Part shown: piece by piece, positions 1 through 5,249 of the stretch
Layout: each line of letters opens with the position of its first letter
Numbering within the stretch: the first letter of the stretch is position 1
Source: a virus
DNA: 19,200 bases
Reading direction: 5' to 3' (one strand)
Virus record (IMG/VR): IMGVR_UViG_3300031669_003266
The notes under the pieces: generated by a model
What the model was told of the DNA's origin: nothing
The model's database searches: none
What the model saw: the letters and a program-made list of their open reading frames with translations, nothing else
Program-made: the position numbers and the translations under genes

Positions 1-17
1 CGAATGGGAAAAGCGCT

Positions 18-431
18 ATGGCCGACGAAACGATTAACTACACGCCACTGACCGAGGAGGAGGCCAAGAAGCTTGGCATTGATTTCTCCACTGGAGCAGT
101 GTTTTCGTCGGCACATCTTCGTAAGAATGACCAGAATCTCCTTCCAGCGGTATTCATGCCAATGGCTCTTGCTGGACAGGATGTGCTCAATCGGCTGAAG
201 GCTGCCGATATCGTCGTCATCTACGAGTACGTGAGCGCCGCCGGTCCTCGTGTGATCAACGGCTATCCTCAGTTTTTCTCGATGCGAACATTGAATCGAG
301 ACGATGCAACGAGAGTTCTTGCATATGCTCGGAAATATTCGAAGCTTCGCGAACAGTTCGTAACGCCAGACATGAGGAAGCCTGACCACGACCCGAATCA
401 GGAGAAACTATTCGATGGCGAAGAAACGTAA
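18..431 (+). CDS. hypothetical protein (137 aa)
   Basis: Complete ORF; no motif recognised. It is the first link in a co-directional chain of overlapping genes, and its stop overlaps the next ORF start. Confidence 0.45.
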   Translation: MADETINYTPLTEEEAKKLGIDFSTGAVFSSAHLRKNDQNLLPAVFMPMALAGQDVLNRLKAADIVVIYEYVSAAGPRVINGYPQFFSMRTLNRDDATRVLAYARKYSKLREQFVTPDMRKPDHDPNQEKLFDGEET

Positions 432-627
432 GAATCCAGAGAGACTTCGAGCAAATTACAGACATATACTTGAGTTCGAGCGTGTAACTGTTGTAGTATG
501 GCCCGATCTTGAGCGTATCGCGATTGTGAGTCCTTTCGATTCGTCAAGCATCTCATTCGACGAATGCATCGATCTGATAGCGAAGACAAAGAAGTCGAGG
601 AAGGGCAAGAGAAGCAATGGCGCATGA
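415..627 (+). CDS. hypothetical small basic protein (70 aa)
   Basis: ATG preceded by ggagaaa about 8 nt upstream. The start overlaps the upstream stop. The protein is Lys/Arg-rich at both ends. Confidence 0.4.
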   Translation: MAKKRKNPERLRANYRHILEFERVTVVVWPDLERIAIVSPFDSSSISFDECIDLIAKTKKSRKGKRSNGA

Positions 628-1192
628 TCCATGGACAAGGATTTTCAGATTCCCGAGTCCGCTGTCGCATCGAAATAAGCAGCTGAAGATGCGCTTCTGG
701 GAGCCACTCTTCGAGATCTGGCACGTCGATCCGGAGACCGATGGAAGCGACTCGTCGTGTCAGCATCGGCTTCAGACAAATCACAACGACAGCTATATTC
801 ATACGTGCTGGCGCTTCTGGCACTGGCGACTACGGTTTCCCGTTGTCCACACGCTGATCAGATGGATTCGTGATCGCTGCGGACTCTGTGGAAAACCATT
901 CGGAATGTTCGCTGGAGTGTGCGGTCACCTTGGCTCATCGAAGCACGCATATCACCCCGAGTGCTATGATATTGTGTGCAAGCGATTTCTGGCCGCGCTA
1001 CATAAGCAGAATCCATGTGAATTCATGTTTGGCGACGGAGAGCCTTGCCCAAATATCGCAGATAGCGTTATCGCGATGATGGACGAGAAGGGCAATTTTC
1101 TTGAGTCAAAACGCTGCTGGCACCACATACCTCGGAAGTCTGCCACACGGCCACTCTCATATGGCCCTCCGATCAAAGTAAACGGAATGTGA
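617..1192 (+). CDS. Cys/His/Trp-rich putative zinc-binding protein (191 aa)
   Basis: ORF with segment RCGLCGKPFGMFAGVCGHLGSSKHAYHPECYDIVC (CxxC...CxH...HxxC), which resembles a RING/PHD-like metal-binding arrangement. It is unusually rich in W and H. The terminal ATG-TGA overlaps the next GTG start. Confidence 0.4.
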   Translation: MAHDPWTRIFRFPSPLSHRNKQLKMRFWEPLFEIWHVDPETDGSDSSCQHRLQTNHNDSYIHTCWRFWHWRLRFPVVHTLIRWIRDRCGLCGKPFGMFAGVCGHLGSSKHAYHPECYDIVCKRFLAALHKQNPCEFMFGDGEPCPNIADSVIAMMDEKGNFLESKRCWHHIPRKSATRPLSYGPPIKVNGM

Positions 1193-1227
1193 ACCTGCCA
1201 AGCTCCACAAGTAGTATGGAGGGTACG

Positions 1228-1998
1228 ATGAGTAAGAAGAGAGCTACGGGAACTCGTGAGTGGGCGCAGAAAACGGTGAACTGCGTGCTCGGTTGCAAGC
1301 ACGACTGTCGGTACTGCTATGCCCGCTACGATATGGTCGACCGCTTCGGAAAGATCAAGAGGGGTGACTGGACGAATCCCGTCGTTCGCGAGCCCGAAGT
1401 CAGAAAAAGCCGCCCAAAGTACGGCGGCGTCGTCATGTTTCCAAGCACTCATGACATCACTCCGGAAGTGCTTGACGAGTGTCTGATCGTTCTTGGAAAA
1501 CTGCTCAAGGCCGGGAACGAGGTACTGCTCGTATCGAAGCCACACGTCGAATGCATCAAAGCAATCGTATACCCATTCGCGGCGTACACGGATCAGCTTC
1601 GGTTTAGGTTCACTATCGGATCTCCACGCGACAAGATTCTCAAGTTCTGGGAACCGGGTGCCCCCATGTTCGGCGAGCGCCTGTCCTCTCTGAGGATCGC
1701 ATTTGACGGAGGTTTCAAGACGAGTATTAGCTCCGAACCTCTACTAGATCCTGCTTACGTCGGAGATCTCTGGGATCAGTTGATTCCGTTCGTGAACTGG
1801 GAGTTCTGGATCGGCAAGATGAACAAGACGGACAGTCGGGTTGACACCGATGATCCCGACGTTCGACGGATGCTTACGCCGATTCTCGAAGGCCAGACGG
1901 ACGAGAGGGTCATGGCGATCTACGATATGTTCAAGACGGAGAAGTTGGTTCGTTGGAAGGACTCCTACAAGGAGGTCATCGAACGATGCCGGAAGTAG
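1228..1998 (+). CDS. radical SAM enzyme (CxxxCxxC; SplB/COG1533-like CxxxCxYCYAR signature)
   Basis: Motif NCVLGCKHDCRYCYARY (Cys at about nt 1294-1317) is the canonical 4Fe-4S radical SAM triad. GGAGGG lies 6 nt before the ATG at 1228. The ORF track extends the frame to a GTG at 1189. The stop overlaps the NUDIX start. Confidence 0.7.
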   Translation: MSKKRATGTREWAQKTVNCVLGCKHDCRYCYARYDMVDRFGKIKRGDWTNPVVREPEVRKSRPKYGGVVMFPSTHDITPEVLDECLIVLGKLLKAGNEVLLVSKPHVECIKAIVYPFAAYTDQLRFRFTIGSPRDKILKFWEPGAPMFGERLSSLRIAFDGGFKTSISSEPLLDPAYVGDLWDQLIPFVNWEFWIGKMNKTDSRVDTDDPDVRRMLTPILEGQTDERVMAIYDMFKTEKLVRWKDSYKEVIERCRK

Positions 1999-2414
1999 TA
2001 GCTCCAAGGCGACCGGTCGTCGGACTAGCCACCCTCTTCATCAAGGATGGGAAGATCCTTCTTGCTGAGCGTCGAGCCGGGAAGCGGCAGGGATTCATGA
2101 ACTGCCCCGGAGGGCATCTTGAGTGGGGAGAGCATTTCGGTGAATGTGCGAGGCGCGAAGTCAAGGAAGAGACTGGAATCGATTTGCTTCAGTGCGAATT
2201 CCTGACGGCTGCCAACGGTCTCGCGCTCGAAGAAGATCATCACTATGTGATGATCTACATGCTTGCCACCAAGTGGGAAGGCGAGGCCCAGCAGATGGAA
2301 GAGGCGAATGGGCCGTGGAGTTGGTACGACATCCCGGGACCGGCTGACAAGATGCTTCCGACGACGCTGATAGCAATCTGCCGATATTTCGAGAGGATGT
2401 CGATACGTGGATGA
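1986..2414 (+). CDS. NUDIX hydrolase
   Basis: Perfect Nudix box GHLEWGEHFGECARREVKEETGI (Gx5Ex7REUxEExGU) at about nt 2109-2177. AAGGAGG lies 10 nt upstream of the ATG at 1986. The start overlaps the radical SAM stop by 13 nt. Confidence 0.85.
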   Translation: MPEVVAPRRPVVGLATLFIKDGKILLAERRAGKRQGFMNCPGGHLEWGEHFGECARREVKEETGIDLLQCEFLTAANGLALEEDHHYVMIYMLATKWEGEAQQMEEANGPWSWYDIPGPADKMLPTTLIAICRYFERMSIRG

Positions 2415-2943
2415 TCTAGTGGCCGCTCTGCATCTTCTCGCGCAAAAGCTTCGCGTCGACGTAGGTGAGTTATCTGATCGCTACGTGCTATACACGCAGA
2501 TCTCTGCGATAGCGCTATTCGTCGTAAACCTGATCTGCGCGTACGCAACGTACAGGATCATCAATTACATCTGCAGACAGTACAAAGAAGCCGATCCAGT
2601 GAAGATCATGGAGACGCGCACTAAGAAGATCAAGGATGACCTCGGTCGAGAGATCGCTGTCGAAACGGCGAAGATAGCCCGATCCTCGGCGCTGGCAGGA
2701 GTCAACGCTGCTCGAATTACTCTCATGGCAATCATAATGGGAGTATTTCTGATAAGCGCCGCCAGTCAGATTCCGGCGATAATCGTGCCTCAGGGCGCTG
2801 CTCTCGATAAAGTGTTCGAGACGATGAAGGACGCTACGAAGGTTGAGATTGTTCAGAATAAGGAGTGCGAGACTTCTGAACGTCCGAAGAAGGTCGACGA
2901 GGCTGCTGAATCAGAAGGAGCAGATGATGGGAGACTTCCTTAA
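2407..2943 (+). CDS. small integral membrane protein (2-3 predicted TM helices, acidic C-terminal tail)
   Basis: GTG start overlaps the NUDIX stop. Hydrophobic stretches IALFVVNLICAYATY and ITLMAIIMGVFLISAASQIPAIIV are followed by an acidic tail (EAAESEGADDG). Confidence 0.5.
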   Translation: MDDLVAALHLLAQKLRVDVGELSDRYVLYTQISAIALFVVNLICAYATYRIINYICRQYKEADPVKIMETRTKKIKDDLGREIAVETAKIARSSALAGVNAARITLMAIIMGVFLISAASQIPAIIVPQGAALDKVFETMKDATKVEIVQNKECETSERPKKVDEAAESEGADDGRLP

Positions 2944-3310
2944 AGAGCCGTGGGCGTTCATTCTCATATTCGCTATTGTGGCGAATATCTTATGGGCTAT
3001 CACGTGGCTATCCATGTGGTCAAAGGATCGATTCAAGAAATCATTTGGTGGAGGGTTACCAATCCTTCTCAGCATCGGGATATTGAACGTCCCGTTTGGA
3101 TTTCTGTTCCTCGCCGGAGCCGTTCTTGGGACTGCGGTACTATCCGTATTCTGGCTATATGCGTCACTGACGAACTCATTCGAGAATGAGCGAAAGGCGA
3201 TTTTAGAATTCATGAATCCACGAGAAGAAACCAAGAACGAGGAAGGAGGTGCGCAGAAAGAGGAGACAGCCAAACCGGCTGCGAAGATGGCGAGACGAAA
3301 GTCGCCATAG
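2926..3310 (+). CDS. small integral membrane protein (3 predicted TM helices, Lys/Glu-rich C-terminus)
   Basis: The ATG at 2926 overlaps the upstream stop (2943); the ORF track extends the frame to 2843. Hydrophobic helices: WAFILIFAIVANILWAITWL, LPILLSIGILNVPFGFLFLAGAVLGTAVLSVFWLY. Confidence 0.5.
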
Positions 3311-3347
3311 GATATGATGATCAAGTGAAGCTGAAAAGGAGATGCAG

Positions 3348-4616
3348 ATGAATTCGAAAGAGAAGTTCGCACTTGTCGTAGGAATACTCGCAATAGTTGG
3401 TGTTCTCTCGCTGTTCGCGACGTTCAGATGGACGACGGTTCAAGGTTCGGAACGAGTTGTGTGGCAGACGTTGGGTGGTGTCCGAGACGACGTCTCTGAA
3501 GACGGTATTCATGTGTACTTCGGATGGACGACGACTCCGCACAAGTACTACATCGGTTCCGATACATTCATCATCGACGACAAGACGGTCACGCCAGACA
3601 ATGACTATATGGACAGGGCTGAAATGGAGTTCAATCAGCCAGACGTTGCTCCAGTCGAGATCCCGGTAACCATGGAACGGCTGACGCTCGCTGACATTGA
3701 AAATGGAAAGACGACTGGTCCAACTAAGGTTATTCTGCGCTGCGTCATGCAGTTCCACCTCGACCCTACCAAGCTTGTGATTCTACATAAGGCGAAGACG
3801 AAAGCATTTCGCACGACATTCCTTAAAGACGTGTTGCTTCAGACGATCATCGACAGCACCACGATTCTCGATGCGCGAACCGTCTATCAGGGCGCTGGTC
3901 GTGTGGCGCTGCAGAGATCCATTGAAAAGTCACTGCAGAGTGAACCGCGCTTCGAAGAGTACGGAATCATAGTGGAGAGATTCGTAGTTCGCGACATCAA
4001 GCTCGTTGACCAGAAGTTCCTTGAGATGATCACTGCCGAAGCGCAGGCCGAGCAGAAGCGCAAGACGGCCATGAAGGAACAGCTTGCTGCTGACGCCGAG
4101 GCCGAGAAGGCAAAGTCCGTAGCTATGGCAGAGCAGAACACGCGACTCGTCGAGGCTGCGACGCTGAAGGGCGAAGAGATCGCTAAGGCGGAAGCGGCGG
4201 CGGCAAAGGAAGTTCTTGCCGCTGAAGCCGATGCGAAGAAGGTCGTCCTCGCGGCTGGCGCTGCCGCAAAGAAGGTTGAGCTTGCTGCGGAGGCCGCAAA
4301 GATTCAGGTAACGCTTGGTGCCGAAGCCGAGGCCAAGAAAGACGAGTTGGAAGGCGAAGGCTTGAAACTTCGAAAGATCGCCGAGGCCGAAGGTGTCCTC
4401 GCTCTTGGTAAGGCCGAAGCTGAAGCGAAGAAGCTGATGCTCGTTGCTTACGAGGGCGAAGGTGGTCAGCGATTCGCACAGGTCGAGATCTCAAAATACC
4501 TCGGACAAGGTATCCAGAAGGTTTACTACGTTCCAAGCGACATGAGCATCAACGCAATCGCGTCCGACTTCCAGAACGCGATTACGGTAGGTCTTCCGGG
4601 AAACACGAAGAAGTAG
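3348..4616 (+). CDS. SPFH/Band-7 domain protein, flotillin-like (YqiK-type), N-terminal membrane anchor plus C-terminal Ala/Glu-rich coiled coil
   Basis: N-terminal TM helix FALVVGILAIVGVLSLFATF. The SPFH core ends in the characteristic ...EEYGIIVERFVVRDIKLVD...ITAEAQAEQ. This is followed by roughly 150 aa of EA/AEAKK repeats typical of the flotillin C-terminus. AAAGGAG lies 6 nt before the ATG at 3348. Confidence 0.85.
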   Translation: MNSKEKFALVVGILAIVGVLSLFATFRWTTVQGSERVVWQTLGGVRDDVSEDGIHVYFGWTTTPHKYYIGSDTFIIDDKTVTPDNDYMDRAEMEFNQPDVAPVEIPVTMERLTLADIENGKTTGPTKVILRCVMQFHLDPTKLVILHKAKTKAFRTTFLKDVLLQTIIDSTTILDARTVYQGAGRVALQRSIEKSLQSEPRFEEYGIIVERFVVRDIKLVDQKFLEMITAEAQAEQKRKTAMKEQLAADAEAEKAKSVAMAEQNTRLVEAATLKGEEIAKAEAAAAKEVLAAEADAKKVVLAAGAAAKKVELAAEAAKIQVTLGAEAEAKKDELEGEGLKLRKIAEAEGVLALGKAEAEAKKLMLVAYEGEGGQRFAQVEISKYLGQGIQKVYYVPSDMSINAIASDFQNAITVGLPGNTKK

Positions 4617-4629
4617 CCGCGAGCCGAAA

Positions 4630-4649
4630 CGCCCGGGTTCATCCGGGCG
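4630..4649 (+). other. GC-rich hairpin (7-bp stem cgcccgg/ccgggcg, 6-nt loop) immediately after the flotillin stop; no U-tract
   Basis: Inverted repeat read directly from the sequence. The missing T-run makes it a weak terminator, possibly an attenuator or processing site. Confidence 0.3.
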
Positions 4650-4692
4650 TCTGTCCGGGACTTACCCCCCGGTACTGACGAGGCAGGTAGCG

Positions 4693-4779
4693 ATGCTCGA
4701 ACAACTGAAGAGGCTTACCATAATCGAATGGATCATCGTCGTAGCAGTTCTGGTGGGCGTTTCCAGAGCCCTGATGTAG
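4693..4779 (+). CDS. candidate 28-aa hydrophobic micropeptide (MLEQLKRLTIIEWIIVVAVLVGVSRALM)
   Basis: A complete ATG-to-TAG ORF below the size cutoff of the supplied track, so it is not listed there. It has a single TM-like segment, sits in the 173-nt gap between flotillin and the HAD gene, and has gaggcagg upstream as a weak SD. Confidence 0.25.
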   Translation: MLEQLKRLTIIEWIIVVAVLVGVSRALM

Positions 4780-4789
4780 GAATATCTCG

Positions 4790-5203
4790 ATGCAAGATCA
4801 GCCGTCTCTCAGACAATGGGCGCTCGAAGAAGTCAATCAGAGTGGAGTCGTGCTGCTCGATTTCGACGGAACGATGACGACGGGCGGCTATCCTGAGATT
4901 GGAGATCCCCGAGAGAGCGTTCTTGAGTACGTGAGAATCGAGCGCTCTGGAGGAAGGGTCATCGTCATCTGGACGTGTCGGACCTCGATGTATCTATGCA
5001 AGACTCTAATAGCGCAGACAGAGGCGGTGCGCGGCATTGCAAAGTGGCTACATGAGAACATGGTCGAGGTTGATGGAATTCTCATGCACGATAAGCCAAT
5101 CTGCGGACTCTATATTGGCGACGAGACAATGCATCCCGACTTTCTTGAGGACTATGAAGAGGCGGTGAAAGGTTGTCTTTCCACTGAAGAGGATGACGAA
5201 TAG
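4790..5203 (+). CDS. small HAD-superfamily phosphatase-like protein
   Basis: HAD motif I VLLDFDGTMT (DxDGT). Later conserved T (VIWTCRT), K (HDKP) and acidic GDE motif (YIGDETM). The size (137 aa) resembles the capless phage HAD phosphatases. Confidence 0.6.
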   Translation: MQDQPSLRQWALEEVNQSGVVLLDFDGTMTTGGYPEIGDPRESVLEYVRIERSGGRVIVIWTCRTSMYLCKTLIAQTEAVRGIAKWLHENMVEVDGILMHDKPICGLYIGDETMHPDFLEDYEEAVKGCLSTEEDDE

Positions 5204-5249
5204 TGGTGTGGCAGTGCCACGAAAATGGACAGTGTCCAAGGAGGAAGTA

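Follow-up and report, generated by a model that had tools for sequence, protein, structure and literature searches.

A small non-NfeD membrane protein as a candidate partner of the SPFH-superfamily protein encoded beside it in a viral contig

SPFH proteins (stomatin, prohibitin, flotillin, HflK/C) form membrane cages and, to our knowledge, NfeD is the only widely recognised dedicated partner of such proteins. Here we analyse a 19,200-nucleotide (nt) stretch of DNA from the IMG/VR virus record IMGVR_UViG_3300031669_003266 (the window; one strand, 5' to 3', with all coordinates given as window positions), in which two small open reading frames (ORFs) for membrane proteins, ORF1 and ORF2, precede a gene for an SPFH-superfamily protein. 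Comparison of related loci supports the view that ORF2, a protein not described before, accompanies the SPFH gene in the manner of a dedicated partner, while ORF1 belongs to a different module. Our leading interpretation, held at about even odds, is that ORF2 serves a phage SPFH cage as a membrane partner or client that is specific to this lineage and distinct from NfeD. We are equally divided on whether ORF2 and the SPFH gene make up a self-contained two-gene membrane module (Unit A), separate from the NUDIX block to which ORF1 belongs (Unit B). All substantial ORFs of the window lie on the + strand, and the original prediction of two small proteins with several transmembrane (TM) segments upstream of an SPFH gene was confirmed, both proteins being conserved. 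The features at issue are:

2407..2943, + strand: ORF1, 178 amino acids (aa), two TM segments, GTG start (ORF call, hydropathy, homologues)
2915..2920, + strand: Shine-Dalgarno-like AAGGAG within the 3' end of ORF1 and 6 nt ahead of the ATG of ORF2 at 2927 (read from the sequence)
2927..3310, + strand: ORF2, 127 aa, all-helical membrane protein (hydropathy, homologues, AlphaFold2 (AF2) model)
3336-3341, + strand: AAGGAG, 6 nt before the start of the SPFH gene
3348..4616, + strand: SPFH-superfamily protein, 422 aa (homologues, AF2 model, Foldseek, family profile)

The evidence that carries this reading is the adjacency of the two genes. ORF2 immediately precedes the SPFH gene in each of six diverged lineages (the window and loci L007, L008, L009/L010, L011 and L022), in which the SPFH protein is 72-100% and ORF2 26-75% identical to that of the window, and the spacing between the genes is -4 to 50 nt in all of them. 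The surroundings, in turn, fall into four different gene neighbourhoods. The order in the window is NUDIX-ORF1, ORF2-SPFH, HAD-like and major-vault-protein (MVP)-like. In L007, ~5 kb separate ORF2-SPFH from NUDIX-ORF1 further upstream, and the pair is flanked by a HAD-like gene on its upstream side and by genes for two other membrane proteins on its downstream side; in L008, L009 and L010 a HAD-like gene is followed by ORF2-SPFH. L011, an IMG/VR contig, carries NAPRT, NadD-like and metallo-beta-lactamase (MBL)-fold genes, then ORF2-SPFH and then an RtcB-like gene (names read from translations). Finally, the two genes of L022 overlap by 4 nt (ATGA) and form a cassette (7630-9266) that stands alone between tRNA-Asp and tRNA-His inside a 28-tRNA array. 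The adjacency thus outlasts the rearrangement of all other neighbours, and it is on this ground that we regard ORF2 as a candidate partner of the SPFH gene. The pairwise identities of ORF2 and of the SPFH protein also co-vary across the six lineages (r = 0.87).

The divergence among these loci is old enough for rearrangement, as the proportion of synonymous differences (pS) across the relatives compared is 0.63-0.80. For ORF1 and ORF2, comparison with the L007-L009 relatives gives a saturated pS of 0.68-0.80 and a proportion of nonsynonymous differences (pN) of 0.26-0.29; for ORF1, pN/pS is 0.36-0.38 with pS likewise saturated. Since synonymous sites are saturated while pN stays at 0.26-0.29, ORF1 and ORF2 are real genes under purifying selection and not chance ORFs. 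ORF2 evolves ~3x faster than the SPFH protein. Independent gene calling on sister metagenome contigs returned products of 178, 127 and 422 aa. Two shadow ORFs on the minus strand (2255-2548 and 2911-3393) were rejected, as all homology and gene calls back the + strand frames.

The same comparison separates ORF1 from this pair. ORF1 starts within the NUDIX hydrolase gene, overlapping its stop by 8 nt (GTGGATGA), and its GTG is preceded by GAGAGGA, 9 nt upstream. This overlap is present everywhere ORF1 occurs (the window, L007 and L008), and it belongs to a block of four genes with overlapping stops and starts (191-aa protein, radical-SAM-like, NUDIX, ORF1) that is kept in L007 and L008. On the other hand, ORF1 is ~5 kb away from ORF2-SPFH in L007, is separated from ORF2 by the HAD-like gene in L008, and was not found in the sequenced flanks of ORF2-SPFH in L009, L011 and L022. 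Thus, ORF1 is translationally coupled to the NUDIX gene and belongs to the radical-SAM/NUDIX module, most simply as its membrane protein, and not to the SPFH gene. Its position next to ORF2 in the window is, on the evidence of these gene orders, a lineage-specific juxtaposition of two modules. Of the proposed "divergent or novel partner pair", therefore, ORF2 stands as a novel candidate partner whose adjacency is kept, and the notion of a pair does not. The neighbouring genes of the window are:

617-2943, + strand: the four-gene block, in which a 191-aa protein precedes the radical-SAM-like gene
1228..1998, + strand: radical-SAM-like gene (Pfam Radical_SAM, 1.3e-5, below the curated cutoff), preceding the NUDIX gene (synteny)
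1986..2414, + strand: NUDIX hydrolase gene (Pfam NUDIX, 1.7e-17), its stop overlapping the start of ORF1
4790-5203, + strand: small HAD-like protein (phrog_1238 at 2.1e-11)
5250-7979, + strand: MVP-like protein, 909-928 aa (MVP shoulder domain PF11978, 8.9e-22; weak Vault_3 and Band_7 matches)

In sequence, ORF1 shows a strongly conserved N-terminal helix (MDDLVAALHLLAQKLRVDV) and TM segments at ~29-52 and 104-127 by hydropathy, joined by a charged loop of ~50 aa. TM2 is followed by a conserved P-x-G-x-A-L-(D/E), an invariant T-K-V-E-I-V and an acidic C-terminal tail. Its mass outside the membrane therefore consists of the 50-aa loop and a 50-aa tail, of which 25 residues are conserved, with no conserved segment of the size of a beta-barrel. 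Its homologues form 7 clusters (at 90% identity clustering) of 47-64% identity. No significant family match was found in Pfam, PHROG, NCBIfam or PADLOC, and a scan of IMG/VR with the ORF1 alignment returned nothing.

The overlaps between starts and stops that had been described for this region hold for NUDIX/ORF1 and for ORF1/ORF2, where the stop of ORF1 and the start of ORF2 overlap by 17 nt with ORF2 in the +1 frame; ORF2 and the SPFH gene do not overlap and are separated by a gap of 37 nt. A fusion of ORF1 and ORF2 by frameshifting was rejected, given the +1 frame of ORF2, no visible slippery site and genes that are not adjacent in L007 and L008. The predicted length of ORF1 (178 aa) was correct. 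That of ORF2 (128 aa) corresponds to an ATG at 2924, and with the common end at 3310 the ATG at 2927 gives 127 aa. We prefer the latter start based on the N-termini of the homologues (MGDFLKEPW...), on the AAGGAG at 2915-2920 and on independent gene calls on six metagenome contigs. A lambda-S-like dual start at the ATGATG was rejected, as the double ATG is not conserved in homologues.

Hydropathy of ORF2 shows a TM1 at residues 8-32, a basic loop at 33-43 and an uncharged 39-residue stretch at 44-82 that holds a conserved N-x-P-F-G kink. These are followed by a conserved amphipathic helix at 84-96 (T-N-S-F-E-x-E-R-x-A-I-x-x-F) and a charged disordered tail; the conserved residues are P8, W23, W27, F36, G43, P45, L47, F57, G58, W76 and A91. 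The AF2 model, built from an 11-sequence alignment, has helices at 8-32, 44-53, 55-81 and 84-96 and no strands, with a predicted local distance difference test (pLDDT) of 70-86 up to about residue 80, ~70 over 81-100 and <50 from 102, residues 97-127 being unstructured. Counts of lysine plus arginine of 0.6, 2.7 and 8.2 for the N-terminus, the loop 33-43 and the C-terminus, read by the positive-inside rule, favour three TM segments with the N-terminus outside and both the loop and the C-terminus inside.

The ORF2 family is real but very narrow. Its homologues, 118-129 aa long, form 4 clusters (again at 90% identity clustering) of 54-80% identity, and an exhaustive profile search of 1.84 billion representative proteins recovered 7 relatives only (representatives at 50% identity). 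ORF2 has no significant match in Pfam, PHROGs, NCBIfam or PADLOC, including any NfeD, holin or defence family, and the best sub-threshold noise in these library scans for ORF1 and ORF2 was Claudin_2 at 0.024 and phrog_944 at 0.054. Scanning IMG/VR with the 4-sequence ORF2 alignment found nothing, and Foldseek of the ORF2 model gave 0 matches in the PDB and a best E of 1.1 in BFVD.

The downstream neighbour is an SPFH-superfamily protein with an N-terminal anchor, an alpha/beta domain and a coiled coil of the oligomerising type. On its own the 422-aa protein has no Pfam match at E<=0.1, Band_7 included, and the assignment comes from transitive homology, the family profile and the predicted fold. 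It has 83 homologues, many with PF01145 or named SPFH/HflC and several from metagenome-assembled genomes of Planctomycetota. The AF2 model shows an N-terminal TM helix, the alpha/beta domain, a helix at 222-315 and further helices at 324-369 and 371-385, corresponding to a long coiled coil at ~222-369 and a conserved C-terminal segment. Foldseek of this model retrieved prohibitin (5.7e-12), HflK/C, erlin, stomatin, flotillin and MVP with probability 1.00, and the family profile matched prohibitin (3.6e-4) and QmcA (4.5e-4) in the PDB. Flotillin ranked 12th in the Foldseek search, with a TM-score of 0.27-0.29, and was absent from the profile search of the PDB; no flotillin-specific match was found in Pfam or NCBIfam. 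The protein is thus nearest to prohibitin and HflK/C and not specifically a flotillin, as it had been labelled.

Some SPFH relatives carry Arg-rich N-terminal extensions of 50-60 residues ahead of the TM helix, and in L034, a distant relative, the N-terminal residues that precede the hydrophobic segment are strongly basic. Following the positive-inside rule, the Arg-rich extensions would place the N-terminus in the cytoplasm and the SPFH domain in the periplasm, so that the topology of the window protein is likely HflK-like. A published regression of SPFH subunit number on CC1 length (y = 0.1782x + 10.22; PMC12624060), applied to the 94-residue CC1 helix 222-315, gives ~27 subunits, an extrapolation from a model of moderate confidence which suggests that the protein would form a ring or cage of about this size.

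We assessed whether ORF1 or ORF2 is related to NfeD, and no test supports such a relationship. Both proteins have a multi-TM membrane anchor as in NfeD, with two TM segments in ORF1 and two to three in ORF2 (by hydropathy, and for ORF2 also by the AF2 helices), in line with the multi-TM character first proposed for them. Neither Pfam NfeD (PF01957) nor DUF1449 was detected in ORF1 or ORF2 at E<=0.1 or at E<=10, NCBIfam gave no match, and no other ORF of the window has an NfeD match. Alignment of the ORF1 and ORF2 families with E. coli YbbJ and YqiJ (NC_000913.3) by hhalign gave probabilities of 0.2-0.5%, so a divergent NfeD, which had been offered as one possibility, is not borne out. Profile searches of the PDB, which includes the QmcA-YbbJ complex 8z5g, returned nothing relevant for either family. 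The C-terminal OB-fold beta-barrel of NfeD (~60-70 aa) has no counterpart in the ORF2 model, where no strand is present and 45 residues lie beyond the last TM segment. The earlier observation that neither protein has an obvious NfeD OB-fold thus holds for ORF2, whose model is all-helical, and, by the size of its conserved segments, for ORF1. The literature does not bear out the assumption that an NfeD gene almost always precedes an SPFH gene: among the subfamilies, SPFH1, SPFH2 and SPFH5 are those with a reported NfeD partner, and none is reported for SPFH3, 4 and 6-12 (PMC2636767), and in P. aeruginosa two of the nine SPFH genes have one (PMC13086221).

Small membrane proteins were also found beside distant SPFH relatives. 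Three of these, 30-33% identical to the window protein, each have a two-TM protein of 68-80 aa with a basic C-terminus located 17-74 nt upstream on the same strand:

L024 (Planctomycetota CP066225), 7685-7927: small two-TM protein
L025 (Actomonas aquatica CP139781), 4769-4984: small two-TM protein
L034, 3770-3976: small two-TM protein

L024 is a complete Planctomycetota genome, and the L034 contig also carries PcfJ and ParB_N genes. The L024 and L025 proteins are homologous to each other (BLASTP 7e-11), all three are unannotated in the libraries searched, and a possible uncalled small equivalent overlaps the SPFH start in L027. They resemble ORF2 in position, strand, membership of the same SPFH subfamily and in being small and hydrophobic with a charged C-terminus, but they have 68-80 aa and two TM segments, whereas the ORF2 family has 118-129 aa, two to three TM segments and an amphipathic helix. 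Small hydrophobic upstream partners may therefore recur in this SPFH subfamily, the sample being three loci. A different kind of SPFH partner may be encoded at another distant SPFH locus, L029, which lies on a 173-kb contig: the gene at 6182-6487, its start overlapping the SPFH stop, specifies 101 aa with a TM segment at the N-terminus and a CxxC...CxxC zinc ribbon.

Based on these results, we propose how ORF2 and the SPFH protein could act together. The SPFH protein would be a single-pass protein with a cytoplasmic N-terminus, its SPFH domain and coiled coil reaching into the periplasm as in HflK/C and prohibitin. Like the SPFH complexes of known structure, it would assemble into a ring or cage, which would fence in part of the host inner membrane. 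ORF2, presumably made from the same transcript, would be a small, fast-evolving, polytopic partner or client embedded in the membrane, contacting the TM helix and the membrane-proximal face of the SPFH protein and either sitting inside the fenced patch or aiding ring assembly. With an N-out ORF2, contacts could form inside the bilayer and, on the periplasmic side, at the conserved E-P-W end. ORF2 would thereby take the genomic position and the general role held by NfeD for SPFH proteins of the stomatin and flotillin type.

Several observations weigh against this proposal. ORF2 was not found upstream of SPFH genes of the same clade with <=70% identity (L015, L016, L017, L018, L012 and L023), indicating that the SPFH protein does not generally need ORF2, and the SPFH genes without ORF2 have no consistent substitute membrane gene downstream. 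The six lineages with ORF2 are phylogenetically close, so that part of the adjacency could reflect descent. Scans for promoters and terminators were at chance level, and co-transcription is deduced from the spacing only. ORF2 has no similarity to the small proteins beside the distant relatives (hhalign probability 0.3%). With the SPFH domain periplasmic and the conserved C-terminal helix of ORF2 cytoplasmic, those two parts could not touch each other. Finally, the AF2 model contains one continuous helix at 55-81, which would be compatible with a two-TM ORF2.

An alternative is that the adjacency has no functional meaning and that ORF1 and ORF2 are ordinary small, fast-evolving membrane ORFans of a large phage, found beside the SPFH gene only by shared descent among close relatives. 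This reading, to which we assign a minor though not negligible share of the probability, is consistent with the tiny size of both families (7 and 4 clusters, with 7 ORF2 representatives among 1.84 billion), with the lack of ORF2 beside SPFH genes of <=70% identity, with the presence of other small TM ORFs in the window (e.g. 13401-13757) and with an ORF1 that is already unlinked. It does not readily account for two genes that stay contiguous in four contexts, including a cassette bounded by tRNA genes and a joint move away from NUDIX-ORF1, at saturated synonymous sites, nor for unrelated small two-TM genes in the same position in three distant relatives. Rather less probable is a holin-like or membrane-permeabilising ORF2, and perhaps ORF1, with an SPFH protein that controls or buffers the resulting effect on the host membrane. 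The small size, the two to three TM segments and the highly charged C-terminal tail in a phage genome correspond to the general architecture of holins, and SPFH proteins are tied to membrane stress and organisation (PMC13086221). However, neither ORF has a significant holin match in Pfam or PHROG, the 19.2-kb window has no recognisable endolysin or spanin-like gene and the flanks seen have no recognisable endolysin, the double ATG is not a conserved feature, and the genes stand among neighbours of an early or auxiliary type (NUDIX, radical SAM, nuclease) and not in a lysis cassette.

Two further alternatives appear very improbable. ORF2 could be a degenerate, short-form NfeD, that is, the multi-TM anchor after loss of the C-terminal OB-fold. 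It shows about three hydrophobic segments, as the YbbJ sequence also reads, it is found beside an SPFH gene as yqiJ is before yqiK, and phmmer of YbbJ against two ORF2 homologues gave E values of 0.45 and 1.4, which are non-significant in a tiny database. Set against this are the hhalign probabilities of 0.3-0.5% with YbbJ and YqiJ, no Pfam NfeD hit even at E<=10, an ORF2 profile and model unmatched in a PDB that holds 8z5g, a model without beta structure, and an SPFH protein that looks HflK/prohibitin-like, a class without a described NfeD partner (PMC2636767). An equally slim chance is left to ORF1 and ORF2 as a joint two-component partner of the SPFH protein. The 17-nt overlap in the window lineage makes their co-translation probable, and an ORF1-like and an ORF2-like cluster (P0005 and P0010) come from the same source (ENA) with a longest contig of 2769 nt each, an unverified hint of the same arrangement in one more relative. 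Yet the ~5 kb between the genes in L007, the HAD-like gene between them in L008, the lack of ORF1 in the sequenced ORF2-SPFH flanks of L009, L011 and L022, and an ORF1 that always keeps its NUDIX overlap mean that the joint partner is largely refuted by synteny.

The reading of ORF2 as a partner or client of the SPFH protein can be compared with known systems. As in the NfeD-SPFH operons (E. coli qmcA-ybbJ and yqiJ-yqiK, B. subtilis yuaF-floT, P. horikoshii PH1510/PH1511), a small multi-TM gene lies beside a gene for an anchored, coiled-coil SPFH protein and is probably co-expressed with it, and like NfeD, ORF2 co-evolves with its SPFH gene, the value of r given above standing beside 0.26-0.91 reported for NfeD (PMC2636767). 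Unlike NfeD, ORF2 lacks an OB-fold, a sequence signal of NfeD or DUF1449 and any structural match, and it is dispensable in the wider SPFH clade. The setting also differs, being a phage and not a cell, and the SPFH protein, nearer to prohibitin and HflK/C, probably extends into the periplasm, in contrast to the cytoplasmic protrusion of the QmcA-YbbJ cage (PMC13086221). The best fold and profile matches come from the cages of HflK/HflC-FtsH and prohibitin-AAA protease, and the topology appears alike (single N-terminal TM helix, N-in, with extracytoplasmic SPFH domain and coiled-coil cap), so the concept of a fenced patch with a client may be applicable to ORF2-SPFH. Unlike HflK/HflC-FtsH, there is one SPFH gene and not a heterodimeric pair, no protease gene is adjacent, and the candidate client, of 127 aa, would expose almost nothing outside the membrane on the periplasmic side. 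A precedent for small non-NfeD membrane proteins as partners in an SPFH operon is provided by SamG/SamH-SamI of B. subtilis (YdjG/H/I; bioRxiv 10.64898/2026.02.06.704340). There, membrane proteins are reported to recruit SamI, an SPFH protein of the cytosol, unlike the phage protein with its own TM anchor.

The genomic setting is best read as part of a large uncultivated phage. The related loci comprise one IMG/VR viral contig and contigs of 44-194 kb rich in tRNA and phage-type genes, and it is on these that the reading is based. The exact 422-aa SPFH protein is present on 17 metagenome contigs, the longest of 35 kb. Neither the whole window (megablast) nor ORF1 and ORF2 (tblastn) matched any of 50,697 phage records, and for the SPFH protein a weak prohibitin match in Rhodobacter phage RcXuper was the sole hit. 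Scanning genomes and metagenomes with the SPFH alignment gave 3 and 7 loci, respectively, so that the census of neighbourhoods is a small one.

With the SPFH gene and the MVP-like gene, the phage encodes two SPFH-fold cage-type proteins within 4.6 kb. The MVP-like gene was not found in any related locus compared, and the one report of MVP homologues in phages concerns two from the gut (bioRxiv 10.1101/2023.11.10.566534). In L007 the place of the window HAD-like and MVP-like genes, after the SPFH gene (14103-15821), is occupied by two proteins, one of 190 aa with a coiled coil and a single TM segment and one of 378 aa with TM segments at both ends, neither with a Pfam match. The HAD-like gene of the window was considered as the counterpart of those upstream of ORF2 in L007-L009 and rejected, since phmmer found no similarity at E<=1e-3.

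Other genes of the lineage were recorded along the way. The sister contigs L002 (1924-2808) and L004 (248-1132) carry, upstream of the window region, an anti-Pycsar Apyc1-like gene (metallo-beta-lactamase fold, Pfam Anti-Pycsar_Apyc1 match), a candidate anti-defence nuclease that would degrade cyclic-nucleotide signals. In the window, 8370-9329 (+ strand) encodes a staphylococcal-nuclease (SNase)-like protein with an N-terminal TM segment (SNase 4.5e-11, phrog_452 4.3e-28), which is followed by a 107-aa protein with a SEC-C motif. An auxiliary cluster at 12844-18463 (+ strand) comprises a GDSL lipase (7.4e-20), a glutaredoxin-like protein, a treble-clef zinc-finger protein, an NAD-dependent epimerase/dehydratase (2e-50), an S-adenosylmethionine methyltransferase (1.9e-10) and, as its final gene, a 574-aa protein whose sole match is a C-terminal CXXCXGXG zinc ribbon. 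L022 (JGI Ga0452209_003785, a 44-kb contig) has its 28 tRNA genes within 11.8 kb (1-11818) among small ORFs. L007, a close relative of the window phage, has at 755-830 a tRNA with anticodon CTA (amber suppressor; labelled Pyl by ARAGORN), which raises the possibility of TAG recoding in the lineage. The stop of ORF2 in the window is TAG, and read-through would extend the protein by 6 residues only.

The arrangement of an SPFH gene with a small membrane partner is known; what is new here is a partner that is not NfeD, in a narrow lineage of uncultivated phage. The analysis teaches that proteins encoded upstream of SPFH genes need not resemble NfeD, and that of two adjoining small membrane genes one alone may be truly linked to the SPFH gene. 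The families are very narrow, with a handful of metagenomic lineages, which limits their general importance. A broader and, in our estimate, doubtful idea is an undescribed general rule, with ORF2 and the unrelated two-TM proteins of 68-80 aa as possible examples, by which SPFH proteins of HflK/prohibitin topology, in this Planctomycetota/Verrucomicrobiota-associated subfamily and in their phages, each have a tiny dedicated hydrophobic partner in place of NfeD, the phage version building an SPFH-fenced compartment of the host inner membrane during infection. Such a compartment might act together with the MVP-like cage protein encoded 600 nt downstream. If ORF2 is indeed a conserved non-NfeD partner, it would widen the known range of SPFH accessory proteins, and ORF2-SPFH would offer a compact two-protein system in which to ask what an SPFH cage does to the membrane in infection.

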